This document shows positions 1-38,492 of a DNA stretch of 64,000 bases, piece by piece. Source of the stretch: Bdellovibrionota bacterium (lineage in GTDB: Bacteria > Bdellovibrionota > UBA1018 > CAIPTA01 > JAALKR01); assembly GCA_965207455.1 (NCBI GenBank), contig CBDBMJ010000003.1, forward strand, positions 32,001-96,000. The letters are read 5' to 3'. Position 1 is the stretch's first letter, and every line of letters begins with the position of its first letter. The notes under the pieces were generated by a model. The model was not told the DNA's origin. It saw nothing but the letters and a program-made list of their open reading frames with translations, and searched no databases. A program made the position numbers and the translations under genes.

Positions 1-1337
1 ACCTGAGAAATAGACACCCTCTCTTGCTTGGTTGTATCTCGATGGCGAATGGTTACACATTGGTCTTGAATACTGTCGTAATCGTAAGTTACACAATAGG
101 GCGTTGCAATCTCCTCTTGCCTACGGTAACGCTTTCCAATACTGCCCGTAATATCAAAATCTGTGCGAAAATCCTTACGAATATCTTGATAGAGCTTCCT
201 AGCAGGCTCTAAAAGCTCCGGCTTTTTTTGCAAAGGAAAAACAGCCGCTTTATAGGGAGAAAGCCTCGGATGCAACTGCAATACCACCCGTTCGTCGTTA
301 AATCGATAGGCGTCGGCCAAAATAGCCAGAACCACCCGGTCACAACCAACTGCCGTCTCAATTACATAAGGTATAAATTTCTCGTCACCCCCATTGTTTA
401 AATTTTTTCCCGAAAACTCCATGTGACGACTAAGATCAAAGTCCGTACGATTATGAATCCCCTCCAACTCCTTCCAACCAAATGGAAACTCATACTGTAT
501 ATCAAATGCCTTCTTACAATAATGGGCCAACTCCCCAGAACCGTGCTCATGAAAACGTAACTTTTCACTGCGCACACCAAGGCTGTTATGCCACGCCATT
601 CGCTGAGACTTCCATTTGTCGAAATGCTCCCCATCTTCCTTAGGATGAATAAAATACTGCATCTCCATCTGCTCAAACTCGCGCATACGGAAAATAAAAT
701 TTCCCGGCGTGATTTCATTCCGAAAAGACTTGCCAATTTGGGCAATACCAAACGGAATTTTTCGACGACAACTCTGCTGTACGTTCACAAAATTCACAAA
801 AATACCCTGAGCTGTTTCAGGACGGAAATACACCATATTGGAAGGATCCTCAATGGCACCCATATGGGAACGAAACATCATATTAAACAAACGGGGATCA
901 GTGAGACTCTCCTTCGTACCACACCTCGGACAAGCCAATCCCTTCAATAACTCCTTCATCTCCTCCATCGAAGGAACGGTCCCACTTGCTTCCTCTATCT
1001 TTGCTATGGGCTCCAAGGAATCCGCCCGAAAACGGGACTTGCATTGCTTACAATCCACTAAAGGATCGTTGAAATTAGCCACATGACCACTTGCCTCCCA
1101 CACCCTGGGATGCATGAGAATGGCAGAATCTATCCCCTCCACATCTTCCCGATCATAGACCATGGCACTCCACCAAGCCTGCTTCACTGCTTGCTTTATC
1201 TCCACCCCAAGAGGACCATAATCCCAACAGGAATTTAAACCTCCATATATCTCGCTGGAAGGAAAGATAAACCCCCGACGCTTACATAAAGACACAAGAG
1301 ATTGCATGTCCGAAAGATTTTTTAGACTGTCCATCAT
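1..1337 (-). CDS. glyQS: glycine--tRNA ligase (homodimeric type), runs off window start
   Basis: Manual translation gives [46 protein letters not shown], the hallmark N-terminus; anticodon-binding-domain-like sequence near position 1-150; absent from ORF track because it lacks a stop in the window. Confidence 0.93.
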
Positions 1338-1404
1338 TGTTGGCTTGGTTTTACCATAAAAAGAACCATAGTTGGGTTGAACTTCGACTTAATGACTGCT
1401 GGTT

Positions 1405-1456
1405 CCGCTAATTCCCCCAACCTAACTATCTGATCACGTTCAGATCACGCTGAAAT
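1405..1456. repeat. 52-bp motif shared with 4103-4154 and 7501-7552
   Basis: ccgctaattccccca...tgatcacg....atcacgc.gaaat, 42/52 identical by eye to the other copies. Confidence 0.8.
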
Positions 1457-1543
1457 ATCCCCTCAAAGTGTCCGAAGCTATTTTTCAACAGCCAATTTAG
1501 CGCAGCATAATAATATCAGCGCAATGCATAATTAAAAAATATA

Positions 1544-1984
1544 GTGATATTAGGGAGCTTAGTAGTAGCTCTATGTTCAAATGTTGCTTTAGCAGCAGAT
1601 ACTGATAAGAAATTAGTGCTCAATTGTGGTGGTTTAACTCAACCGAGTTTTTCCCAAAGTACACTGCAGTTCACTTATAATTCAGAGAGAGATATGACTA
1701 GGGCCAATAGTTTAACGTTCCAGAAGCATGATGGTAATCATGCTGTTGAAATGTATAGTAAGTGTTATGTAGTATGGTCAGACCCTACAAGGGAAGTGCT
1801 ACCAGTACCTGTATCCATGAATTGTTACGATGCGAAAGAAAACAGAGGGATTCAGGTAACAAAGACAAAAAGACAGGAAAATTCCCTTAATCTAGCTCTA
1901 AGACAGTATTCATATGATTCCAATAGTGGCGAGAAAACACTTCAAGAAAATTTTGGTTATTGCCAAGAAGTTACAGCAGAATAA
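1544..1984 (+). CDS. hypothetical secreted protein (AT-rich, 4 Cys in mature part)
   Basis: Signal-peptide-like (KNI)VILGSLVVALCSNVALA; followed by an intrinsic terminator; start codon uncertain. Confidence 0.7.
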   Translation: MILGSLVVALCSNVALAADTDKKLVLNCGGLTQPSFSQSTLQFTYNSERDMTRANSLTFQKHDGNHAVEMYSKCYVVWSDPTREVLPVPVSMNCYDAKENRGIQVTKTKRQENSLNLALRQYSYDSNSGEKTLQENFGYCQEVTAE

Positions 1985-2020
1985 ACACTGAATATATCTT
2001 TCGATAATTTGTCTTTAAAT

Positions 2021-2062
2021 AAAATCAAGGGAAGGAGAAATTCTTCTCCCCTTGATTTTTTT
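2021..2062. terminator. bidirectional intrinsic terminator
   Basis: aaaatcaagggaaggagaa-a-ttcttctccccttgatttttt hairpin with A/T tails, between the 1544-1984 ORF and convergent tRNA-Tyr. Confidence 0.75.
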
Positions 2063-2179
2063 GTTCTTAACTCCATTTTCACTAGACTCTCTTTTTCAGA
2101 AAAAATCACACCGAAAATCACACCAAAAGTGAAATCGGTAAAAAATAAATCAATAATTTCAATGAACTTACAAAGAATC

Positions 2180-2265
2180 TGGTGGAGGGAGAAGGATTCG
2201 AACCTTCGAAGGCGTACGCCGTCAGATTTACAGTCTGATCCCTTTGGCCGCTTGGGTATCCCTCC
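2180..2265 (-). tRNA. tRNA-Tyr(GTA)
   Basis: GGAGGGATACCCAAGCGGCCAAAGGGATCAGACTGTAAATCTGAC...GGTTCGAATCCTTCTCCCTCCACCA; long variable arm, CCA end. Confidence 0.97.
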
Positions 2266-2460
2266 GCATAAAGCAAGTTCTGAAATGCTCAATACACTCT
2301 TATTACCTAAAAAATTTATCATAGCAAGATTATCACACAATAATAAAAAAGATTCGTTTCGACATCGCCTCACTAACCCTTCTTCTACTTTTTTCCATGA
2401 TTATGCTGCACGTTACACTGTATATTAGTATATTATAAATTTTGAACGCTTGAGGAAAAG

Positions 2461-2536
2461 GCCGGCGTAGCTCAGGGGCCAGAGCGACGCATTTGTAATG
2501 CGTTGGTCGGGGGTTCAAATCCCTCCGCCGGCTCCA
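2461..2536 (+). tRNA. tRNA-Thr(TGT)
   Basis: GCCGGCGTAGCTCAG...ACGCATTTGTAATGCGT...GGTTCAAATCCCTCCGCCGGCTCCA. Confidence 0.96.
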
Positions 2537-2648
2537 TTCAAGACGACAAAATAGAAAAAGATTAAAGCCAATAAAAACAACATTCTTGTGAGAAAGCACA
2601 TCAATCAAGTTAGGAGACCCTTTTAATGTGTTTAGAATAATTTACGAC

Positions 2649-2951
2649 TTAGTCGCCGGCGTAGGGATCACTATCAGATCTATCAATGGACTTATCTTCT
2701 TGATCTTTTTTATCACCACTGCCTTGTTCATCGAGGACATTAGTATTATCTTCTCTAGCTTCCGGACGGGTATTTTGCTTATGCCATATACCAAGGGCAA
2801 TTACTCCAGCGTAAGCAATAGCCGCAGCAATTGCAAAAGTGGCTAGTAGGGGTTCTGCACGAGCATCTTTTGTGCCTGTTAATGTTATGGAGAGTGCAAA
2901 TATCATTGCCATTACCATTGTTACTATTTTTTTATTTCTTCGATTTTTCAT
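2649..2951 (-). CDS. small secreted protein, cassette 1 (shared signal peptide, hydrophobic helix, acidic tail)
   Basis: GAAGGAG RBS; MKNRRNKKIVTMVMAMIFALSITLTGTKDARA/EPL; first 35 codons identical to 4244-4531. Confidence 0.85.
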   Translation of the reverse strand: MKNRRNKKIVTMVMAMIFALSITLTGTKDARAEPLLATFAIAAAIAYAGVIALGIWHKQNTRPEAREDNTNVLDEQGSGDKKDQEDKSIDRSDSDPYAGD

Positions 2952-3075
2952 TATTTACTCCTTCTGAAAGACTTAGGTATCTCTACCCTCTTCTTTCTCT
3001 TAATTTAAAGCAGCACTTATTGGGAGGTTGCTCTTTTTCCCATTGATGAAACCTTTCATCAATTATATTTGTTAC

Positions 3076-3091
3076 TGCAAGGGACGTGCCA
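3076..3091 (-). promoter_or_regulatory. sigma54 -24/-12 promoter
   Basis: TGGCACGTCCCTTGCA, exact TGGCAC-N5-TTGCA consensus, ~125 bp upstream of the cassette 1 start. Confidence 0.85.
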
Positions 3092-3200
3092 AAATACGCC
3101 AAAAAAGGTATTTTTTTAAAAAGCTCTTTATTTTCAGGCATTTACATGTTGCTCTTGGGGCTTGCATGTAGAGGAACTATAGAAAAAGAAGCCCCTAAAT

Positions 3201-3236
3201 TGACTAAAAATTAAACAGTTGTAGAGAATATTTGCA
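3201..3236. promoter_or_regulatory. putative enhancer (bEBP upstream activating sequence) pair
   Basis: tgactaaaaattaaaca-gt-tgtagagaatatttgca ~110-145 bp upstream of the -24 box; conserved at 38598-38632 and degenerate at ~8473-8508. Confidence 0.5.
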
Positions 3237-3418
3237 GTCGTTCCTATAAATTTCTGTGCTGAATAGGCTGGAAAAGGGGAGTTTAGTGCTTCTGCCTACG
3301 CCCCTTAGGGGGAAGAGGCATCAGCAACTAGATTGCGAAGCTCTCTTTTAAGTAGATACCCCTCCTTTCCCACGCATGAGATAAGCAAGGACATTTCAGG
3401 CTAGGTCACCAATGCAGC

Positions 3419-3652
3419 TTGAAAGGCTCTATTTGCCCATTCTGGGTCAAATTTCTCACTTATGATGATGATGGGGGCTTCCACTCCACCTTTAAGAGCT
3501 GCCTTCGGTACTCTCTGAGTCGCACAAGGCAGTCCTTGGTTTCGAGGCAGCCTTCGAGTGCGGAGCTGCTGCTCAGTCCGAGGTCGAGCAGTATGGTGAT
3601 GATTATTAGTTTGCAGTCTGTACATAATTTCCTCCTTATTGTTTTGTTTTAA
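3419..3652. other. cryptic small coding region under apparent codon constraint (frame unresolved)
   Basis: Six differences from copy 6827-7060, all synonymous in the + 77-aa frame and in a minus-strand 54-aa frame (3624-3460). Confidence 0.5.
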
Positions 3653-3700
3653 AAAAATGGGAGACTCTAACAAGCAAAGATGCAACCGACCTTTTTGCTA

Positions 3701-3727
3701 ATGTGTGATTATTAAATAATCACACAT
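3701..3727. promoter_or_regulatory. perfect palindrome, operator-like (second copy 7109-7135)
   Basis: atgtgtgattatt-a-aataatcacacat followed by aatcacaca/aatcata direct repeats. Confidence 0.55.
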
Positions 3728-3899
3728 GAGAATCACACAAGAATCATAAAACACCCCTGATTTGGGCTGATTTTACCTGATTTCGTGTGAATTCACCTTC
3801 TATGAACTTTCTTTATTATCTAACCAAAGTTGTTGTTTTTATTCTGTTTTTTCTATCTTTTCTGAACTATCTGATTTTGTTAAAAATGACGCTATGTGA

Positions 3900-3926
3900 T
3901 GGTCGGGGCGGCAGGATTTAACCTAC
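3900..3926 (-). repeat. tRNA-Pro 3' fragment (att-like)
   Basis: tggtcggggcggcaggattt-aacctac equals 8582-8609 with one base missing in the T loop. Confidence 0.9.
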
Positions 3927-4168
3927 TACACAAAATCCCCTCCAGGGATTTCGTTGCGTAGGCTCCCCTGCGCGCTTAGAAAAATCATCCAAAATATTGA
4001 GGCAAAAGAGCCTTGTTGCGTAATACTTTGTAAAAATTGATTTGAGGGTATAGAGGGTCTACCCGCATGTCCTTTAGGTAATAGCGGAGGAGTCTACTGC
4101 AACCGCTAATTCCCCCACTTTAACCATATGATCACGCTTGAATCACGCAGAAATTAAATTTTAGGCAC

Positions 4169-4195
4169 AAAAAAACCCTCTAAAGAGGGCTTTTT
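4169..4195 (-). terminator. intrinsic terminator after cassette 2
   Basis: aaaaaaaccctc-taaa-gagggcttttt; copy at 7567-7593 after cassette 3. Confidence 0.8.
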
Positions 4196-4243
4196 ATATA
4201 TCAAGATAATTGTATTAAACTATGCTTTAGCTGCCATTATCAG

Positions 4244-4531
4244 TTAGTCTGCTTCAGCGGCGCGGGAATCAGGGGAAGGGCTGTCAGATTCATCAGATTG
4301 CTGATGATCAAGGCGACTCTCTTGTTCCTTGAGGACAGCAGCATTACCTCCATCTCTCTTCTTTATCTCAATAGCGGTAATTATTACCATTAAAGTACCA
4401 ATCGCAATTCCTGCTAGAGTGAGTGTTAGGGGTTCTGCACGAGCATCTTTTGTGCCTGTTAATGTTATGGAGAGTGCAAATATCATTGCCATTACCATTG
4501 TTACTATTTTTTTATTTCTTCGATTTTTCAT
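4244..4531 (-). CDS. small secreted protein, cassette 2
   Basis: Same RBS and 35 N-terminal codons as cassette 1, different mature part TLTLAGIAIGTLMVIITAIEIKK...DSRAAEAD. Confidence 0.85.
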   Translation of the reverse strand: MKNRRNKKIVTMVMAMIFALSITLTGTKDARAEPLTLTLAGIAIGTLMVIITAIEIKKRDGGNAAVLKEQESRLDHQQSDESDSPSPDSRAAEAD

Positions 4532-4655
4532 TATTTACTCCTTCTGAAAGACTTAGGTATCTCTACCCTCTTCTTTCTCTTAATTTAAAGCAGCACTTAT
4601 TGGGAGGTTGCTCTTTTTCCCATTGATGAAACCTTTCATCAATTATATTTGTTAC

Positions 4656-4671
4656 TGCAAGGGACGTGCCA
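4656..4671 (-). promoter_or_regulatory. sigma54 -24/-12 promoter
   Basis: TGGCACGTCCCTTGCA. Confidence 0.85.
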
Positions 4672-4946
4672 AAATACGCCAAAAAAGGTATTTTTTTAAA
4701 AAGCTCTTTATTTTCAGGCATTTACATGTTGCTCTTGGGGCTTGCATGTAGAGGAACTATAGAAAAAGAAGCCCCTAAATTGACTAAAAATTAAACAGTT
4801 GTCATTGCACAGCGATTCTGTCGTATAACTACACAGGGAAAATGTCGGCGCATATGCGTCAAAAAGGGGCTTGATTTCTAGTAAAACAGGCTCTCAAGAC
4901 AGTATTCACAGCTGTTTCCTGGCTCTTAGAGAGCCGTACTTTGCTT

Positions 4947-6095
4947 CTAACGGTCTATCTTCTTTTTTGGGATCCTAGGTGGCAGTGGTCTGCTCTTTTT
5001 AAGAGCTGCACGCGTTCTAAGGAGTATTGTCTGCATATTAAACTTTAGCCATATACGCCGGATGCTCCCATACTGTACATTTAGTTGACACTCTTTCTTT
5101 AAATGCAAGAATAATTGGCTTTGCCCTAGGTAGGGATTCTTCAAAGAAAAATCAATTACTATTCTCTCTATGCTCCTTATGCTTTTGGAGGATTGATTTT
5201 TATTGTAATTCTTTTTTAAAGCACCGGCTCCTTTTTCTTTTAAAATTTTTCTATTGTTATAAATAGTTTGCCTTGAGCAGCCTGACTGTCTGGCTGCCTC
5301 TGATACATTTTGAATCTTGCTTGCAAGCTCAATAATCTCTAGCTTTCTTTTTGCCTCCATGTCTTTTGCAGAAGGTTTTGAAGGTTCAGTTACCTTAGAA
5401 ACTATTAATTTCTTGCCTGCAAAATGCGCTGCAATTTTTCCTCTAGCATTTATTCGGATTTCAATTTCTTGTTTAGCAATGGAATGTCTTAACTTGGATT
5501 CTAATAAATAGATTTTATTCCCATAACTAAAGGTATGATCATTTCTAATCTTCCGATACTCTTTCATAACAAAAATACCACTGAGATTTGTGGATAATGG
5601 AACCGGGGTATATTCAGATATAGGGTTATCTGGTTCCACAATGCAATTTTTCTGCCAATAGGAAGGAAGAAATTTTTTTTGAAAAAACCTGTTTGCTCCT
5701 CCTATATTCCGAATGCCAGCCAATCTTAGCTCTGGAATTAATCTATCTTGAAGTGTATGGAAAACTCTTTCTATTCGACCTTTCCCTTGAGGTGAATTTG
5801 CAAAAATAATTTCAATGCCTAACTCCTCACAAGCTCTCTTTACTTGCGAGAAATTACCCCGCTTTTGACCTCCAAAGAGACCTGCTCTATCAACATACAG
5901 CATTTTAAAAATTCCCCTTTCCTTAATAACTTCTTTTAAGACTTGCAAGCAACCAAAACTTGTTTCTGAAGGAAAGAATTTACCAAAAACCTCTCCATCA
6001 GCATCATCAATAGTAGCGATCAAGCAAGATTTAGAATCTCCGAACCATTTATGTGTACTACCATCCATCTGCAACATGAGACCAGTGCATGCCAT
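4947..6095 (-). CDS. transposase catalytic (DDE) part with C-terminal HTH extension
   Basis: QMDGSTHKWFG, IDDA, YVDRAG, ANSPQGKGRIER motifs. Confidence 0.9.
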   Translation of the reverse strand: MACTGLMLQMDGSTHKWFGDSKSCLIATIDDADGEVFGKFFPSETSFGCLQVLKEVIKERGIFKMLYVDRAGLFGGQKRGNFSQVKRACEELGIEIIFANSPQGKGRIERVFHTLQDRLIPELRLAGIRNIGGANRFFQKKFLPSYWQKNCIVEPDNPISEYTPVPLSTNLSGIFVMKEYRKIRNDHTFSYGNKIYLLESKLRHSIAKQEIEIRINARGKIAAHFAGKKLIVSKVTEPSKPSAKDMEAKRKLEIIELASKIQNVSEAARQSGCSRQTIYNNRKILKEKGAGALKKNYNKNQSSKSIRSIERIVIDFSLKNPYLGQSQLFLHLKKECQLNVQYGSIRRIWLKFNMQTILLRTRAALKKSRPLPPRIPKKKIDR

Positions 6096-6496
6096 ACGCT
6101 CCCTTCTTTTTCTAAGTTTAGAGCGTCTTTTTTTTTCATTTTCACATGATGTATTTCATGTGCCCACCTTCGAAGCGTTTCTTTATTTATAAAAACACCT
6201 TCATCACTTTTCAGCTTTTCTCTAAGATGAGTTAGATTAAAATCAAAATATTTTATTTTAATTAAATCTTCAACTTTAGTTCTTACCGAGTCAGCGGTCT
6301 TATTGATAGGATCGCGACCTCTATTTTTATGCAGCAAATGCAAAGATCCTTTTTCTTTATGTAATCTTAAATATCGTTCAATCGTTCTTATAGATCTATT
6401 TAGAAGTTTTGAGGCATTCGGGATTGTTATTTTGCCATCACAAACCTTTGAGATTGTATCCATTTTTAGTTGATCATAACTTGTTATTCTTATCAT
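6020..6496 (-). CDS. transposase N-terminal HTH part (joined to the catalytic part by a -1 shift at A9G)
   Basis: ASKLLNRSIRTIERY...LLHKNRGR...YFDFNLTHLREKL...ETLRRW typical of this family. Confidence 0.85.
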   Translation of the reverse strand: MIRITSYDQLKMDTISKVCDGKITIPNASKLLNRSIRTIERYLRLHKEKGSLHLLHKNRGRDPINKTADSVRTKVEDLIKIKYFDFNLTHLREKLKSDEGVFINKETLRRWAHEIHHVKMKKKDALNLEKEGSVWHALVSCCRWMVVHINGSEILNLA

Positions 6497-7307
6497 AATA
6501 CTGCGCCCTCCTATTTATTTGTAAAATCAGAAGTACAGCTTATGAATAGCGCAGTGCGCCCGTCAAATTCCCTGTGTAGTTATGATACGACAGAATCGCT
6601 GTGTAATTACACTAAAAATTAAACAGTTGTAGAGAATATTTGCAGTCGTTCCTATAAATTTCTGTGCTGAATAGGCTGGAAAAGGGGAGTTTAGTGCTTC
6701 TGCCTACGCCCCTTAGGGGGAAGAGGCATCAGCAACTAGATTGCGAAGCTCTCTTTTAAGTAGATACCCCTCCTTTCCCACGCATGAGATAAGCAAGGAC
6801 ATTTCAGGCTAGGTCACCAATGCAGCTTGAAAGGCTCTATTTGCCCATTCTGGGTCAAATTTCTCACTTATGATGATGATGGGGGCTTCCACTCCACCTT
6901 TAAGAGCTGCCTGCGGTACTCTCTGAGTCGCACAAGGCAATCCTTGGTTTCAAGGCAGCCCTCAAGTGCGGAGCTGCTACTCAGTCCGAGGTCGAGCAGT
7001 ATGGTGATGATTATTAGTTTGCAGTCTGTACATAATTTCCTCCTTATTGTTTTGTTTTAAAAAAATGGGAGACTCTAACAAGCAAAGATGCAACCGACCT
7101 TTTTGCTAATGTGTGATTATTAAATAATCACACATGAGAATCACACAAGAATCATAAAACACCCCTGATTTGGGCTGATTTTACCTGATTTCGTGTGAAT
7201 TCACCTTCTACGAACTTTCTTTATTATCTAACCAAAGTTGTTGTTTTTATTCTGTTTTTTCTATCTTTTCTGAACTATCTGATTTTGTTAAAAATGACGC
7301 TATGTGA

Positions 7308-7334
7308 TGGTCGGGGCGGCAGGATTTAACCTAC
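7308..7334 (-). repeat. tRNA-Pro 3' fragment (att-like), second copy
   Basis: Identical to 3900-3926. Confidence 0.9.
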
Positions 7335-7624
7335 TACACAAAATCCCCTCCAGGGATTTCGGGCTTCCCTGCGCACTTAGAAAAATTCCAAAATATTGAG
7401 GCAAAAGAGCCTTGTTGCGTAATACTTTGTAAAAATTGATTTGAGGGTATAGAGGGCCTACCCGCTGTCCTTTAGGTAATAGCGGAGGAGTCTACTGCAA
7501 CCGCTAATTCCCCCACTTTAACCATATGATCACGCTTGAATCACGCAGAAATTAAATTTTAGGCACAAAAAAACCCTCTAAAGAGGGCTTTTTATATATC
7601 AAGATAATTGTATTAAACTATGGT

Positions 7625-8245
7625 TTATCTGCCATCAATTACTTCTACTTCATCGGTAGTGAAATCAGCTCCAAGCATTTCAGAAAGTCTTTTCTCATTT
7701 TTTGTTGTATAATCCGAGCTAAAAGAGCGATACATTCGATTAGCTGTATCAGTTAAACTAACTATATCACGACCCGTTTCTTCAGCTATTTTTTGTACCA
7801 AATTTATTAGTTTCTCTTCCACCTCTAAAATCGATATATCTTTATTTAAGCTTGCTATTTTAACCCTCCAATTCGATTGATTCAAGCTTTTATCCTTCTT
7901 TGCTTGCTCTCCATACAAACGAAATTGATTATATTCTCGAACAGCAGTATCCCAGTCAATCTCACTGAGAAGACTCTTGCTAAGGACTGCTCTATCGTAA
8001 AAGAATCTACCTCTTTCATGTAATTTGTCTATTCTCTGGTTAAATTCTCTCTCATCTTTATTCGACTGACCCAGCACTTCATCACGCTCAATCTTCTTTT
8101 CGCTCAGAACCTCTAGAAGCCGTACATTCCTCTTTTGCACTATAGTCATTTCCTCTGCTTGCACTGGTTGAGAATATCCTGTTAGTGTTATGGCAAGAAC
8201 CCCTGCTATCATTGTTACTATTTTTTTATTTCTTCGATTTTTCAT
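7625..8245 (-). CDS. secreted helical/coiled-coil protein, cassette 3
   Basis: Starts MKNRRNKKIVTM...ITLTG like cassettes 1-2, same 5' UTR, unrelated 175-aa mature domain. Confidence 0.85.
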   Translation of the reverse strand: MKNRRNKKIVTMIAGVLAITLTGYSQPVQAEEMTIVQKRNVRLLEVLSEKKIERDEVLGQSNKDEREFNQRIDKLHERGRFFYDRAVLSKSLLSEIDWDTAVREYNQFRLYGEQAKKDKSLNQSNWRVKIASLNKDISILEVEEKLINLVQKIAEETGRDIVSLTDTANRMYRSFSSDYTTKNEKRLSEMLGADFTTDEVEVIDGR

Positions 8246-8581
8246 TATTTACTCCTTCTGAAAGACTTAGGTATCTCTACCCTCTTCTTTCTCTTAATTT
8301 AAAGCACACTTATTGGGAGGGTGCTCTTTCCCATTTGAAATCTTTCATCAATTATATTTGTTACTGCAAAGCCAAAATACTCCCAAAAGGGTTGAAAAAA
8401 GCCCTTTATTTTAAGTTATTTACGCCCGTATTCTGTTTGTATTTGCTGAAGACGAAGAAAAGCGGCTTTTCTCGACTAAAGGTAGACACCTGTCGAGAAA
8501 GTGAGCGGTAGTCTTTGATAAATTCTTGTATCTGTTACGCTGGAAATAGGTTGGATTCAACTGGTGGGTAGTGTTTTATGA

Positions 8582-8659
8582 TGGTCGGGGCGGCAGGATT
8601 TGAACCTACGACCCCTTGGTCCCAAACCAAGTGCGCTAGCCAGACTGCGCTACGCCCCG
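8582..8659 (-). tRNA. tRNA-Pro(TGG)
   Basis: CGGGGCGTAGCGCAGTCTGGCTAGCGCACTTGGTTTGGGACCAAGGGGTCGTAGGTTCAAATCCTGCCGCCCCGACCA. Confidence 0.97.
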
Positions 8660-8712
8660 ACAGAGTCTAAACTTTCTATTCCATATAAAAATCAATGTTA
8701 CCTGAATTCAAG

Positions 8713-9468
8713 CTATAATTCTTCCGATAAAGCTCGTTCAATCGCTTCTTCTTGGAGGGGGAGAATTTTTTGGATTCCGACCAAAGCCAGGTTCGTCATT
8801 TCAGTAAGTTTTTCTGGTGGAAAGGCGCTCTTCTCTCCCGTCCCTTGAATTTCCACAAAGTGTCCCTTTCCTGTGGCCACAACGTTCATGTCTACCTCAC
8901 ATTGGGAGTCCTCTTCATAGTCCAAATCTAAAAGGCAGTTTCCATCTTTATCAATGCCCACGCTAATGGCTCCAATGGATTCGACGAGAGGCTTATGGTG
9001 GGGAGGAATCTTTTTCGACTTTTGTAACTTACGAATAGCAATGACTAGGGCAACGTATGCCCCTACCACTGAGGCGGTACGAGTGCCTCCGTCGGCTTGT
9101 AAAACATCACAGTCTAAGAGGATGGTGCGTTCACCTAGTTGGTCAAAGTCCACGGCTATGCGAAGAGCGCGTCCGATGAGTCGTTGGATTTCTAGCGAAC
9201 GGGCACTGGCTTTGTCCCGTTCCCGTCGGTTTCGTACGTTTGTGGATCGGGGGAGCAGGGAGTATTCAGCAGACACCCAGCCCTTGCCCTGTCCCTTGAG
9301 AAAATGGGGAACCTTTTCTTCCACGCTGGCCGTGCAATACACCTTCGTATTACCTGCACTCACAAGGCAACTGCCCTCGGCGTGACAATTCACATTGACC
9401 TCTAAGGAAATGGGTCGGAGTTCTTGGGGGCTGCGATTAAAGGATCGATGTATTTTTTCCATAGGCAA
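8713..9468 (-). CDS. rph: ribonuclease PH
   Basis: GWVSAEYSLLPRST, DCDVLQADGGTRTAS motifs. Confidence 0.97.
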   Translation of the reverse strand: MPMEKIHRSFNRSPQELRPISLEVNVNCHAEGSCLVSAGNTKVYCTASVEEKVPHFLKGQGKGWVSAEYSLLPRSTNVRNRRERDKASARSLEIQRLIGRALRIAVDFDQLGERTILLDCDVLQADGGTRTASVVGAYVALVIAIRKLQKSKKIPPHHKPLVESIGAISVGIDKDGNCLLDLDYEEDSQCEVDMNVVATGKGHFVEIQGTGEKSAFPPEKLTEMTNLALVGIQKILPLQEEAIERALSEEL

Positions 9469-10140
9469 CTATACAACTACAACCTTTCGTCCATAATCAC
9501 AATAAGACTTTACAACACAATCACTGCATGCGGGGCGACGAGCCACACAAATCTGCCTCCCATGATAAATAATCCAGTGAGAAAACATCGTCCATTGCTT
9601 TTGAGGGATAATTTTCTCCAACGCACCTTCAATCTTTACGGGATCGACCTCCTGGGTAAGGCCCAATAAATTCGCAATACGCTTTACATGGGTGTCTACC
9701 ACCAATCCCGGGACACCAAAAGCATTCCCCAGCACCACATTGGCAGTTTTGCGACCCACACCTGCAAGGGCAGTGAGTGCCTCCATGGTTTGGGGTACGC
9801 GCCCACCATGGGAACTCACCAACACTCGAGCGCATTTTTGAAGATTCTTTGCCTTGTTTTTAAAAAAGCCTGTGGAGTGCACAATGGATTCAATGGTAGA
9901 AAGGCGAGCTTTTGCCAAGAGTTCTGGCGTTGGGTATTTTGCAAAAAGAACTTTTGTCACCTTATTTACCTGCACGTCTGTGCATTGAGCCGACAGTATG
10001 GTGGCAAATAAAAGCTGCTCAGGGGTTTTATAGTCCAAAGCACATTTTGCTTCAGGGTACTCCAAGCTTAGAGCTTCAACGATTCGCTCCACTTTTTTTT
10101 TCAACTCTATTGTATTGTTTATTTTTTTCGCTGTAGCCAT
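9469..10140 (-). CDS. nth: endonuclease III
   Basis: LSAQCTD, HhH GVGRKTANVVL, VDTHV, C-x6-C-x2-C-x5-C cluster. Confidence 0.97.
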   Translation of the reverse strand: MATAKKINNTIELKKKVERIVEALSLEYPEAKCALDYKTPEQLLFATILSAQCTDVQVNKVTKVLFAKYPTPELLAKARLSTIESIVHSTGFFKNKAKNLQKCARVLVSSHGGRVPQTMEALTALAGVGRKTANVVLGNAFGVPGLVVDTHVKRIANLLGLTQEVDPVKIEGALEKIIPQKQWTMFSHWIIYHGRQICVARRPACSDCVVKSYCDYGRKVVVV

Positions 10141-11777
10141 TGGGCCATTTCCTTTACATTTTTTGTATTGACGATATCTTTTTTCCCTAAACCACCCTTG
10201 CGTGCCATGAGCACACCATAGCGATAGTCCTCCAGTCCTCGAATGCTATGGGCGTCGGGGGAAATCGCTATGGAAACTTTTTTTTCTTTTGCCTGGGGAA
10301 GTATGCGCCAGTCGAGGTCCAGACGATAGGGACTGCTATTTAGCTCTATGCCTGTTTGAAAGGCTGCTGCGGTTTCAAGAACAGCTTCCATATCGAAATC
10401 ATAACCCTTCCGACCCAAGAGAATCCGTCCCGTGGGATGGCCCAGCCAAGTGGAAAATGGATTCTTCAGGGCTGTACAAATTCGTCGGGTCATGGCTTCT
10501 TTATTCATTTGAAACTGTCCGTGGATGCTGGCAATAACAAAATCAAATTTTGCAAGTATTTCGTCGGGATAGTCGAGAGAACCGTCGGAAAGAATGTCGG
10601 ACTCAATGCCATGGAAGATATGAACGTCCTTCTGTTTTTCGTTTAAAGCTCTCACCTCATCGCGCTGTCGCTGGATTGTGTCCACCTTCAAACCATTAGC
10701 ATAGATAGCCGACTGAGAATGGTCCGATACACCCAAATAAGAAAGCCCCAACTCCCTACACTTCTCCACCATTTCTTTCAAAGAATTTGCCCCATCACTT
10801 TCAGTAGTATGGGCATGGAAAACACCTTGAATGTCTGCCTCCTCCACAAGATCAATGTTTACGGGCTTTCCCTCTCGCATTTCCGGAGGAATCCATTCAA
10901 GACCAATATTTTGAAAAATAGCTTCCTGAGTTTCTCCCTCTGTAATGGAACCCATTTTTTCTAAAGAAGATACAAAGGTGGATGAGCCGGTAAGACGCAG
11001 CTTCGTAACCTCTAAACTGTGGGGCATTTTTTTTGTCCAAAGAAAAACCCGAACAGCGATGCCATCCTCAGTACTACCCTCCATACAAGGCCAAGGATCC
11101 TTTGTAAAAGTAAAGTCAGGAGAAATGGGCTTTAGTTTTGTGAGATCAGGACGCTTTTCCGTCGACTGGTGCAGGAGAAAATCCAAGCTAGACAAAGTCT
11201 CCATTCGACGACAAAGCTCTCCCACCTCATACACAGCCTCCACCCCAGACAGCACCTCCAAAACGCTGCGAATACTTGCCGACCAGTCCAACCCCCGGGG
11301 CAAAAGACAACGCCCTCGATTGAGTGCCAAATTCTCCAATCCCTTTTGAATACTCCTTTGACTTTTCTCCCCAAAACCCTTGAGATCCAATAAACGATTT
11401 TCACCACAGGCATATTCCAACTCCGAGAGACTACCAACGGACAAAGTCTCCCAAAGAACTTTAATTTTCTTCACCCCAAGACCGGGCACTGCCCTAAGCT
11501 CCATCAGTCGAGACGGAAAACCCTCCTTGAGTTCCTTTAACTCCTCCAAGTCTCCTTCACTCAAATACTCCTCAATGGCAGCAATTAAACCTTTGCCAAT
11601 CCCCTTGATTTTATGTAGATCCTTCGTCGACAAAAGAGTTTTCACATCCCTGGTTTCACCCTTAATAATGGCAGCCCCATTGGAGAAGGCACGCACCTTA
11701 AATGGGTTGGCTCCTTTTAGATCCAAGAAAAAAGCCATTTCCGTAAATAATTCAGCAACCTTATTATTATCCGACAT
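10119..11777 (-). CDS. polX: DNA polymerase X family / PHP domain protein
   Basis: NPFKVRAF, HhH motifs, PHP HAHTTESDG...SDHS...DAH. Confidence 0.93.
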   Translation of the reverse strand: MSDNNKVAELFTEMAFFLDLKGANPFKVRAFSNGAAIIKGETRDVKTLLSTKDLHKIKGIGKGLIAAIEEYLSEGDLEELKELKEGFPSRLMELRAVPGLGVKKIKVLWETLSVGSLSELEYACGENRLLDLKGFGEKSQRSIQKGLENLALNRGRCLLPRGLDWSASIRSVLEVLSGVEAVYEVGELCRRMETLSSLDFLLHQSTEKRPDLTKLKPISPDFTFTKDPWPCMEGSTEDGIAVRVFLWTKKMPHSLEVTKLRLTGSSTFVSSLEKMGSITEGETQEAIFQNIGLEWIPPEMREGKPVNIDLVEEADIQGVFHAHTTESDGANSLKEMVEKCRELGLSYLGVSDHSQSAIYANGLKVDTIQRQRDEVRALNEKQKDVHIFHGIESDILSDGSLDYPDEILAKFDFVIASIHGQFQMNKEAMTRRICTALKNPFSTWLGHPTGRILLGRKGYDFDMEAVLETAAAFQTGIELNSSPYRLDLDWRILPQAKEKKVSIAISPDAHSIRGLEDYRYGVLMARKGGLGKKDIVNTKNVKEMAQWLQRKK

Positions 11778-11901
11778 AAATTTTTTGTATCCACAAAACT
11801 CAGTGAATACAAGCCGTAAGGGACAACAAAGGAAGCAACTTGACAGAAAATCTCAACCCCTGTATAGCAGAGACAGGGATAATTCATTTTGTAAAAATTG
11901 A

Positions 11902-11978
<77 letters not shown>

Positions 11979-12341
11979 AAAATAAAACACTACCCACCAG
12001 TTAAACCCAACCTACTTTCTAATACGCACACCATCAAGTTAGGAGACCCTGTAAAGGGGCGAGTAAGCCAACCCTTTATGGATCCCAGAGAAATAGTACA
12101 TCGTAATAGGGCAAGCCTAAAAAAAACCCAAACCCTTGTTCCAACCTCAAGCAAAAATAAAGATTAAGTGCACTTCAATTTTCTTAGACGCTGGTATATT
12201 GCCTTCTAGTACTGGAAGATCCTATAAACAACAAATAACCGACTTTTTTACTTTAGAACATTGCTGAAAATGCTTTAGTCCAACAAGAAACTGTTTTTTT
12301 TCCATGCCCTATGGTAAGTTGCGAACTAATTATTCTTGGGA

Positions 12342-12418
12342 GCAGGTGTAGCTCAGTTGGATAGAGTAGTTGGCTTCGAACCAATTGGTCGGGGGTTCGA
12401 ATCCCTCCACCTGCGCCA
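12342..12418 (+). tRNA. tRNA-Arg(TCG)
   Basis: GCAGGTGTAGCTCAGTTGGATAGAG...TTGGCTTCGAACCAA...ACCTGCGCCA. Confidence 0.95.
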
Positions 12419-12464
12419 TTCTCGGCAAAAAATTTATTTAAACAAACACTTACAGAGGAAGTAA

Positions 12465-13232
12465 ATGGAAAAAAGTGGATATAGTACACAGGAACTGCGC
12501 AATTTAGTTAAGCTGCGTCAGCGAGGGACTTATATATACATCCTGCCTAATTTATTTACAGCCACAAATCTTGTCTTTGGTTTTTTATCTGTCATTTCTT
12601 CCATGGAGGGTAATTTTGAGTATGCTGCTTGGGCAATTTTATTAGCCACCGTATTTGATCTTTTAGATGGACGGGTTGCTCGCCTCACCAATACCATGAC
12701 CCGTTTTGGAACAGAGTTAGATTCCCTGTGCGACCTAATTTCTTTTGGCATGGCTCCTGCCATATTGATATACCAATCGTCTTTGCGAGAAATGGGTGGA
12801 TGGGGTTTGGTTGTGGCCATGGTTTTTCTTCTTTGTGGCGCTCTCCGCTTAGCAAGATTTAATGTGTTTTCCAATGTGGTTCCCAAAAGCTACTTCCAGG
12901 GGCTACCAATTCCTGCAGCTTCTGCTGCTATTGTTACGCTTATTTTTTTCATGAACAGCACGGGCCATAGTTTAGAAGATAATTTTTTTGTGCCTGCCCT
13001 TGTTCTCTTTTTAAGTTTTCTTATGGTCACTACAATTCGTTTTTTTAGTTTTAAGAAAATCTACCTTGGAGGCCCCCATTCCATTCCCATAATTCTTACT
13101 GCAATTATAATAGTACCTTCACTAATTTTATGGTTTGAAACACTGGCATTTTTATTGCTTCATTTTTATATTGCCCTTTCTCTTTTTTTAGATCTACTTC
13201 GTCATGTTCGACGAAAGGATGCCCTTCAGTGA
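12465..13232 (+). CDS. pssA: CDP-diacylglycerol--serine O-phosphatidyltransferase
   Basis: DLLDGRVARLT..FG.ELDSLCD motif, LRLARFN. Confidence 0.93.
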   Translation: MEKSGYSTQELRNLVKLRQRGTYIYILPNLFTATNLVFGFLSVISSMEGNFEYAAWAILLATVFDLLDGRVARLTNTMTRFGTELDSLCDLISFGMAPAILIYQSSLREMGGWGLVVAMVFLLCGALRLARFNVFSNVVPKSYFQGLPIPAASAAIVTLIFFMNSTGHSLEDNFFVPALVLFLSFLMVTTIRFFSFKKIYLGGPHSIPIILTAIIIVPSLILWFETLAFLLLHFYIALSLFLDLLRHVRRKDALQ

Positions 13233-38476: not shown

Positions 38477-38492
38477 TGCAAGGGACGTGCCA
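38477..38492 (-). promoter_or_regulatory. sigma54 -24/-12 promoter
   Basis: TGGCACGTCCCTTGCA, identical to 3076 and 4656; flanks to ~38635 align with 3064-3238. Confidence 0.85.

Follow-up and report, generated by a model that had tools for sequence, protein, structure and literature searches.

Behind a tRNA-Pro(UGG) gene of an uncultured Bdellovibrionota bacterium, three short genes alternate with near-identical copies of a repeat, which raises the question of whether such an array was built up from mobile cassettes or arose by recombination among repeats already resident on the chromosome. The array lies in a stretch of 64 000 nt, termed here the window (positions 32001-96000 of contig CBDBMJ010000003.1, assembly GCA_965207455.1), to which all positions without a contig name refer. 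The genome comprises 2.38 Mb in three contigs, C1 (1.88 Mb), C3 (504 kb, holding the window) and C2 (5.6 kb), and the assembly has a completeness of 94.7 %. An earlier note on this DNA had seen in the array a set of integrase-less cassettes, either mobilized in trans or expanded by recombination within the repeat, R. On balance, we favour the reading that it is a tandem cluster of paralogs in the trailer of the tRNA gene, beside the decayed end of an integrated island, and that it was homogenized within R by recombination or gene conversion.

R is a mosaic of dispersed repeats

All genes of the array are encoded on the minus strand, in the order rph, tRNA-Pro(UGG), C, B and A. The layout given in the earlier note, in which variable segments alternate with the repeat (V1-R-V2-R'-V3-partial R-tRNA-Pro), is real, with R recurring as R' in two parts on either side of an insertion sequence (IS) of the ISNCY family (Table 1). 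The copies are near-identical, as had been stated: in an alignment made with the IS removed, R and R' differed at 20 of 1378 columns (10 substitutions and three indels, the latter making up 10 gap columns). A run of 658 nt (2847-3504) was without any difference, and within it 2847-3222 is reproduced unchanged in the promoter-proximal part of R'; the differences were clustered at 3505-3571 and 3954-4067. Repeat pairs were found at 2832-3131 and 4412-4711 (98 %), 3196-3495 and 6604-6903 (99 %), and 4068-4237 and 7466-7635 (99 %), together with a 100 nt piece that occurs three times (2913-3012, 4493-4592 at 100 % and 8207-8306 at 99 %). The contents listed for R were likewise present, namely signal-peptide codons with a ribosome-binding site (RBS) (2847-2965), a sigma54 motif, the relic of a small open reading frame (ORF), a fragment of tRNA-Pro and a terminator. 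The tRNA fragment, termed the core, is an exact copy of the last 18 nt of tRNA-Pro(UGG) (8582-8599) and occurs twice downstream of that gene, once in R and once in R'. The terminator hairpin stands behind genes B and C (7574-7587 in the latter case), with T-runs flanking it on both sides.

Two further claims stood in part. A partial third copy of R, placed between 8210 and about 8420, does exist, at 8207-8423, but its sigma54 promoter is dead, with 6 nt missing. The V segments had been said to share no evident nucleotide identity; a BLASTP comparison of V1 and V2 did return nothing, but 98 of 177 bases aligned by MAFFT were identical, with patches such as 20 identical bases of 25, and genes B and C have their final ~45 coding bases in common (44 of 67 identical). 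Identity between R and R' was 100 % until three codons beyond the predicted signal-peptidase site, where it gave way to this level of likeness between V1 and V2, and at the other end it faded across ~50 nt into the coding 3' ends. Judged from the alignments, these borders look like limits of homology and not like the sharp borders of attachment (att) sites.

The treatment of R as a single module did not survive. R has 57 matches in its own genome, and a map of these revealed a different set of further copies for every part, so that R is a mosaic of separate dispersed repeat families. Two of the parts, M5 and M6, are small repeats, and M6 together with the terminator is common to the 3' flanks of other genes of the exported-protein family described below; gene A is without M6, M5 or M4 downstream. 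A 61 nt repeat with tandem half-sites (GATCACG..ATCACGC) was observed at 1396-1456, 4094-4154 and 7492-7552, the first being 77 % identical to the copies in R and R', and also at C2:874, C3:312687, C1:1041948 and C1:1872937; at 1396 it falls within a divergent promoter region ahead of a gene for a 146 aa exported protein. An Rfam scan of 1-13000 (E up to 1) found nothing beyond five tRNAs, and the matches that it gave at the terminator hairpins were discounted, their 26.3 bits falling short of the cut-off of 50.

Table 1. Features of the tRNA-Pro(UGG) array in window coordinates. M1 to M6a are parts of R; TLR, tRNA-linked repeat; UTR, untranslated region
Feature	Position	Strand	Basis or remark
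rph	8713-9468	-	Precedes tRNA-Pro(UGG)
tRNA-Pro(UGG)	8582-8659	-	ARAGORN; Rfam tRNA 65.5 bits; array anchor
Native-type tRNA trailer	8424-8581	-	Alignment of 7 trailers
Third promoter/5'UTR/signal-peptide copy, diverged	8207-8423	-	87.6% over 233 columns
Gene C, 206 aa	7625-8245	-	ORF
R' promoter-distal part	6631-7622	-	Terminator, M6a, M5, TLR unit, M3
R' tRNA-Pro core	7308-7325	-	
R' M3	6760-7301	-	
R' small-ORF relic	~6868-7033	-	
ISNCY-family insertion sequence	4803-6610	-	NF033594
R' promoter-proximal part	4427-4802	-	Sigma54 promoter, 5'UTR, RBS, gene B codons 1-35
Gene B, 95 aa	4244-4531	-	ORF; V2 = 4225-4426
R, 1378-bp mosaic	2847-4224	-	
R terminator	4176-4189	-	
R M6a	4094-4160	-	
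R M5	4004-4092	-	
R M4 (TLR module)	3918-3998	-	
TLR module ending in tRNA-Pro 3' end	3897-3998	-	
R tRNA-Pro core	3900-3917	-	
R M3	3352-3893	-	
R M2, promoter module	3063-3351	-	
Gene A sigma54-type promoter	3076-3091	-	TGGCACGTCCCTTGCA
R M1, 5'UTR/signal peptide	2847-3062	-	
Gene A, 100 aa	2649-2951	-	ORF; V1 = 2649-2846
tRNA-Thr	2461-2536		Convergent; 112 nt past gene A

An exported-protein family with a common promoter and signal peptide

The constant block of promoter, 5'UTR and signal peptide ahead of differing mature parts, as the earlier note had it, proved to be not only real but genome-wide, with 16 full modules. The promoter module was found by nhmmer in 37 copies in the genome (16 full-length and 21 with the RBS and signal-peptide part only), and a sequence-only Infernal model gave 41 matches, 16 of them at 62-126 bits. 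When 25 mature parts were compared all-vs-all by BLASTP, five pairs were related (E < 0.01), falling into four local groups. Third-codon-position identity at conserved residues of the signal peptides was 0.69, against 0.49 expected from codon usage, which indicates that the heads of the family are homologous DNA not yet saturated with changes; with bodies that cannot be aligned, the family cannot be explained by simple divergence. In the tandem pair p1174/p1176, identity was 92-100 % from -150 to +200 (72 % in one 50 nt window) and 58-80 % beyond. At least 10 members of the family lie within 120 kb at C1:124000-243000, with a signal-peptide consensus of roughly MKKQKNIITTIAMVLAIALPTTGYS, in some of which a lipobox Cys replaces GYS.

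Within the array, an insert of ~70 nt in the 5'UTR is common to A, B and C and absent from the other 11 aligned modules. Genes A and B share an early stop (GAC TAA), and the bases past the stop of B match the last codons of C. Together, these features argue that C is the outgroup and that A and B are sisters made in place. By inspection, gene B encodes a signal peptide (ending in DARA, ahead of EPL), one hydrophobic helix and an acidic tail, and gene A has the same build, while gene C encodes a signal peptide followed by a probably helical remainder and is an orphan. A and B probably encode small proteins that cross the membrane once and have an acidic tail in the cytoplasm; the product of C is probably helical and either periplasmic or secreted.

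No Pfam family reached its cut-off for A, B, C or 19 other proteins of the family that were scanned. A protein search with gene C found itself only among 1.84 billion representatives, and an Atlas search gave scores of at most 0.81, within noise; a search with the signal-peptide region of the member p208 returned itself and one match at E = 0.33. At the DNA level, R gave only two matches of 27-33 nt, a size expected by chance, in 40 relatives, and the promoter-module model had a match in nine of these 40, at most 24.9 bits, so that the family was not found in them. There were no matches to a promoter 26-mer in metagenome and genome contigs; a 33-mer from the A/B/C leader, searched against metagenome contigs, and a 23-mer from the small ORF, searched against genome contigs, gave none either. 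Records of the genome itself were possibly excluded from these searches. Plasmid and phage collections likewise yielded no match.

The motif TGGCACGTCCCTTGCA occurs on the minus strand ahead of gene A and, at 4656-4671, ahead of gene B, in each case 140 nt from the ATG, and the same 16-mer was present at 38477-38492, at another gene of the family. Four sigma54-type motifs were counted in the window against 0.15 expected, and none of 100 shuffles reached four. The promoters of A and B have the -24 GG/-12 GC pattern TGGCAC-N5-TTGCA; gene C has no sigma54 promoter because the 6 nt deleted lie between the -24 and -12 elements. The genome encodes rpoN (PF04552, one match, 209.8 bits) and has 12 matches to Sigma54_activat (PF00158), eight of them at 188 bits or more. 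Genes A and B are presumably under sigma54 control, and would be turned on jointly by one of the enhancer-binding proteins of the genome. An orphan promoter module without an intact ORF was noted at C3:457084-459071, adjoining two enhancer-binding ATPase genes (C3:457870-458367, minus strand, and C3:458586-459071, plus strand) that are candidate regulators of the family.

The IS that splits R' had been recognized before, and its presence was confirmed; its limits were corrected to those in Table 1, with a target duplication of 16-20 bp at 4783-4802 and 6611-6630. Its transposase is split between two ORFs (6020-6496 and 4947-6095), ORF2 scoring 267.1 bits against the NCBIfam ISNCY equivalog NF033594 (cut-off 250) and ORF1 86.9 bits, and its ends are inverted repeats of ~40 nt. 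A second copy, interrupted by ~2 kb, lies at C1:237097-240981, and each copy has its own 16-20 bp target duplication. Both stand at a homologous motif, ACTAAAAATTAAACAGTTGT in the window and ACTAAAAAATAGACAGTTGT on C1; the family genes concerned are B and p236, and the motif precedes the sigma54 promoter of each by ~130 nt. Two insertions at one motif suggest a target-site preference for the conserved upstream motif of the module.

tRNA 3' ends and integrase islands

In Escherichia coli, tRNA-linked repeats (TLRs), known from the tyrT locus, are units behind a tRNA gene that each close with the 3' end of that tRNA. The TLR module of R belongs to such a family, with 16 further copies at eight loci (76-91 % identity) that are placed behind tRNA-Met, tRNA-Arg(CCU), three tRNA-Ser genes, tRNA-Pro(GGG) and tRNA-Glu, and beyond an island at tRNA-Gln. 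The copies inspected each end in the 3' end of their own tRNA. Successive units are spaced by 209-226 nt at eight other tRNA loci, and by 225-285 nt at tRNA-Met. Normal TLR units in this genome are ~210-285 bp long and geneless, whereas those of tRNA-Pro(UGG) measure 1.26 and 1.58 kb and hold one gene each, and its cores, 1262 and 4670 nt after the tRNA, fall outside the usual period. On inspection of their sequence, neither unit C nor unit B showed the inverted T-arm half of a TLR (GGATTCGAAC...).

The tRNA-end repeats of the genome are of two kinds, a TLR type and an integrase attR type. The former is preceded by ..GTGTAGTAGGT.., and both the R and R' fragments belong to it: their cores have GATTTTGTGTAGTAGGTT ahead of them, which is also the case in the TLR arrays of Arg(CCU), the three Ser genes, Pro(GGG) and Glu. 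The arm of the latter type, TTACAGTTGCYTG, stands beside a core only at islands behind tRNA-Asn and tRNA-Gln, and not at the cores of R and R'. The tRNA-Pro fragments had been taken as marks of integrase att sites, a view that was not supported, since their TLR type, the lack of the attR arm and limits of identity that lie inside genes all speak against an insertion of cassettes. The first ~38 nt after tRNA-Pro(UGG) resemble the trailer of tRNA-Pro(GGG) and the flank beyond the attR of the Asn island; as a trailer of native type follows the tRNA, nothing has integrated at the tRNA itself.

M3 was found at nine further loci, with three short fragments in addition. Its left end occurs five times, always 6-7 nt past the CCA, behind tRNA-Asn, tRNA-Gln, tmRNA and the tRNA-Pro fragments of R and R'. 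In the first two of these places it forms the tRNA-side, integrase-distal end of islands of 9.4 and 10.7 kb, respectively, the far ends of which carry a replication-relaxation gene, an excisionase-type helix-turn-helix (HTH) gene and a tyrosine integrase gene; beyond the integrases come TTACAGTTGCYTG and then a 13-14 nt copy of the tRNA end (attR). Since the Gln island lies between the tRNA and its TLR array, TLR arrays are seen to be chromosomal and older than the island. M3 adjoins the tRNA-Pro end copied in the TLR in the same manner as it does genuine tRNA ends, and an island would accordingly have been integrated there at one time. Nine matches to tyrosine recombinases (PF00589) were obtained in the genome, all on C1 or C2; the search found no such gene on the 504 kb contig C3 and none beside tRNA-Pro.

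The tRNA-Gln island (C1:1227650-1239092; integrase and excisionase at C1:1228423-1229881) comprises a copy of M3 whose small ORF is intact, two ThsB_TIR proteins, an N6_N4_Mtase domain fused to Mrr_cat, an IS3-type element, a replication-relaxation-like gene, the excisionase HTH and the integrase, past which lie the attR and a displaced TLR array of three units. The tRNA-Asn island (C1:1713427-1722945; integrase and excisionase at C1:1721399-1722833) has an integrase 77 % identical to that of the Gln island and encodes a 975 aa Big_13/DUF285 protein. C2:1-5588 resembles part of an integrative or mobilizable element, with a family gene under a sigma54 promoter, a MerR regulator, MobC/Replic_Relax and an HTH_17 excisionase; its tyrosine integrase runs off the contig end, and the integrase region has 74 % DNA identity to C1:1267899-1269188, beside tRNA-Leu(CAA).

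The small ORF of M3 encodes 65 aa behind a strong RBS, with a hydrophobic start, the motif LEGC and a basic helix, and is intact in two copies. In R its relic (~3460-3625) has a 5 nt deletion after codon 4, shared with R' and two others, and in three of these four deleted copies the ATG frame ends after 17-18 codons (MYRLQTNNH..). On the antisense strand, four copies (those of R and R' and the two with the intact small ORF) have an open frame of 77-85 aa. Six clustered differences between R and R' were considered as proof that the small ORF is coding, and rejected as such: they fall on third positions in both frames, and the antisense translations are identical, so that the strands cannot be told apart. 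A protein search with the small ORF found one protein, 95 % identical and probably the other intact copy in this genome, and no relatives outside the genome. M3 also contains a near-perfect 25 nt palindrome, TGTGTGATTATTAAATAATCACACA, at 3698-3730 and 7106-7138, and AATCACAC and AAATCAG repeats upstream of the small ORF, which look like putative operator or arm-type binding sites.

At seven M3 sites that differ between R and R', both alleles occur in other M3 copies of the genome. The R' alleles agree with copies c1578 and c1713 at six of the seven sites, and the R alleles with c1238 at six and with c816 at six. The presence of these alleles in dispersed copies points to exchange among copies, i.e. 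ectopic gene conversion. Behind the tmRNA gene (C1:813900-817000), an 814 bp tandem duplication (91-92 % identical) is present without repeats of a tmRNA core, each unit holding a piece of M3 and a gene for a 105 aa Cys-rich exported protein.

Relatives were compared at the rph locus. Of nine with an rph match, six of the same order were examined; their rph is 58-62 % identical, a distance at which the comparison is silent on R itself. Four loci at the class level had no tRNA behind rph. In the closest relative (G001, same family, 88 % complete), rph gave no match and the tRNA-Pro probe found tRNA-Met. In one relative of the same order (G003:C8:10700-19421), an ORF of 586 aa abuts a second tRNA gene, tRNA-Pro(CGG), beside tRNA-Pro(UGG). 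Its N-terminal motif YVRVSTDEQ is presumably that of a large serine recombinase-like protein, and the tRNA-Pro site would thus take up foreign DNA elsewhere in the order.

Origin of the array and its likeness to known systems

The favoured reading may be put as a sequence of steps. A, B and C would be paralogs of a lineage-specific family of exported proteins whose members are alike in one module of promoter, 5'UTR and signal peptide and in a short 3' end, and are otherwise unrelated. Gene C would have come to lie inside a TLR unit of the tRNA-Pro(UGG) trailer, and the tRNA 3' end copied at the close of this unit may once have served as attachment site for an island of the Asn/Gln type. The island would then have decayed until M3 and one sigma54 gene, gene A, remained, after which R, a block that starts at the tail of a gene and reaches into the signal-peptide codons of its downstream neighbour, was presumably duplicated. 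Unequal homologous recombination and gene conversion would keep the copies of R alike, and mature parts too different to recombine would stay or become distinct. Expansion by recombination in R, the second option of the earlier note, fits the data.

Several observations weigh against this history. To keep 1.38 kb at 98.5-100 % identity beside ~200 nt that are near random needs either much conversion or an import of V2. Divergence around the core is uneven, with seven substitutions in 1053 nt on the M3 side (six in one patch) and three substitutions and three indels in 307 nt on the TLR side, which is also expected of two elements with separate histories. The junction of core and M3 in R and R' matches the attL form of the Asn and Gln islands. 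Unsaturated heads on bodies that cannot be aligned imply some exchange of modules or cargo within the family, and the order of events is to be read with no close relative in the collections searched. Others of these observations are what tandem accretion at the tRNA end would predict, in the manner of cis-mobilizable elements (CIMEs), with units C (~1.26 kb) and B (1.58 kb without the IS) non-autonomous and the integrase and excisionase of an island acting in trans. Exact 18 nt cores flank units B and C, and for B this, together with the attL-like junction, is as accretion predicts on the M3 side; M3 starts 6-7 nt past the CCA at all five of its left ends; and two intact islands with integrase, excisionase and replication-relaxation genes carry M3 on the tRNA side. 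On the 5.6 kb contig C2, a family gene is accompanied by MobC/Replic_Relax, by an HTH of excisionase type and by a tyrosine integrase. At four of 14 loci (binomial P = 3.7e-5), or three of 13 without the tRNA-Pro locus (P = 7e-4), full modules are co-oriented with a tRNA gene that lies no more than 2 kb upstream. In six of six relatives of the same order, moreover, tRNA-Pro(UGG) follows rph and is itself followed by different genes each time. Such accretion is nonetheless unlikely in our estimate: the right-hand junctions are TLR-type without the attR arm of the islands, unit C opens with native trailer and not with element DNA, identity between units crosses the cores and stops within genes, and no integrase is found beside tRNA-Pro or on its contig. 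Nor does site-specific insertion at a tRNA end explain why only the mature half of a gene varies. The same TLR-type junctions, native trailer and borders inside genes speak against the cassettes mobilized in trans of the earlier note. A related idea, that the tRNA-end copies closing TLRs are extra landing pads for islands, with the tRNA-Pro units as minimal integrase-less passengers of one sigma54-driven exported protein each and with the head and 3' end as handles for domain swaps, would also appear doubtful at present.

V2, like other cargo of the family, might instead have been imported from a different strain or locus by homologous recombination in conserved flanks, through a double crossover or the Campbell-type insertion of a circle with R and V2, and without a site-specific recombinase. 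The conserved 5' and 3' ends around unalignable middles, the M6-type 3' flanks that are common to the family genes pC2 and p1101, and the unsaturated synonymous sites of the signal peptides would all follow from such swaps, and a Campbell insertion into R yields exactly V1-R-V2-R-V3; but the derived features of A and B (5'UTR insert, early stop and build) fit duplication in situ, and no donor of V2 was found elsewhere in the genome (blastn, depth 1), so that we rate an import as improbable. That the second copy of R is a misjoin of the assembly is very improbable indeed. Parts of R are multi-copy, and the read data, one public run that is possibly the source sample, consist of short contigs that break at repeats and are silent on long-range order, copy number and circles. 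The genome, however, is in only three contigs, the two copies of R are told apart by 20 alignment columns and by an IS that has a target duplication of its own, and separate contigs of the run carry V2 (4195-4453) and V3 (7593-8239), each with R-type ends and no differences. Depths in the run were 11.4 for V2, 10.6 for V3 and 24.1 for the flank, values that cannot rank the parts. Joints were seen at 2729>4424 (side 30), 3094>8491 (side 44), 3281>3090 and 4136>2000; these might reflect other haplotypes, but short-side joints at a likeness of 90 are often repeat-born, and no conclusion is drawn from them. A diversity-generating retroelement was rejected on finding no match to RVT_1 (reverse transcriptase) in the 94.7 % complete assembly, as were integron cassettes, with no tyrosine recombinase on C3 and only two inverted-repeat pairs in 1-12000, neither of them at a unit end.

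The tandem paralog cluster that we favour has partial counterparts. In the lpl cluster of Staphylococcus aureus, tandem paralogs are reshuffled by homologous recombination between repeats, and evolution acts on a unit that reaches across two genes (Tsuru and Kobayashi 2008, PMC2568036). Tandem paralogs and a unit spanning two adjacent genes are found here as well. In lpl, however, the conserved recombining region is in the middle of the ORF and the unit spanning two genes is variable, whereas here R is conserved and the middle of the ORF varies, and R has in addition 1.1 kb of non-coding DNA, a mosaic of repeats with a tRNA fragment among them. In the vsp/vpma loci of Mycoplasma (PMC3365025), the non-coding DNA ahead of the ATG is highly conserved among the genes of a cluster and the signal peptide is conserved as well, while the sequence after it varies, an arrangement that A, B and C display too. 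The Mycoplasma proteins are lipoproteins with repetitive variable parts and an adjacent site-specific recombinase that inverts promoters; A-C, by contrast, have no Cys lipobox, a contig without a recombinase, a sigma54 promoter per gene (that of C being dead) and a family dispersed over 14 loci. A repeat search of 1-12000 found no repeat family within V1, V2 or V3, no tandem-repeat search having been made. With CIMEs, as they are outlined in PMC5704250, the array has in common tandem DNA that lacks an integrase and is flanked by directly repeated tRNA 3' ends, and a core-M3 junction equivalent to attL, but it differs from that outline in a second junction without an attR arm, native trailer next to the tRNA and identity that ignores the cores. 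Repeated integration at the tmRNA gene of Dehalococcoides has left serial direct repeats of the 3' end with variable cargo between them, in islands that are reported to be large and provided with integrases (PMC3146451), whereas the units here are of 1.3-1.6 kb and have none. A narrow search of the literature on Bdellovibrio sigma-54 promoters and on tRNA-linked repeats did not find the exported-protein family.

The reach of these observations is limited by their resting on one uncultured genome without close relatives. What they indicate is that an apparent cassette array can arise from four ordinary processes at one tRNA gene, namely TLRs, island decay, family expansion and gene conversion. 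They also bring to light a lineage-specific family of at least 16 genes in which homologous promoter, leader and signal-peptide DNA precedes orphan mature parts that are mostly unrelated, and in which an ISNCY element has twice entered the same motif, upstream of two family promoters. That an island end abuts the tRNA-end copy of a TLR just as islands abut real tRNA genes suggests that TLRs can act as secondary attachment sites. Should the doubtful reading of these copies as landing pads for small passengers be true, the array would represent a mobile, co-regulated secretome in a Bdellovibrio-like bacterium.

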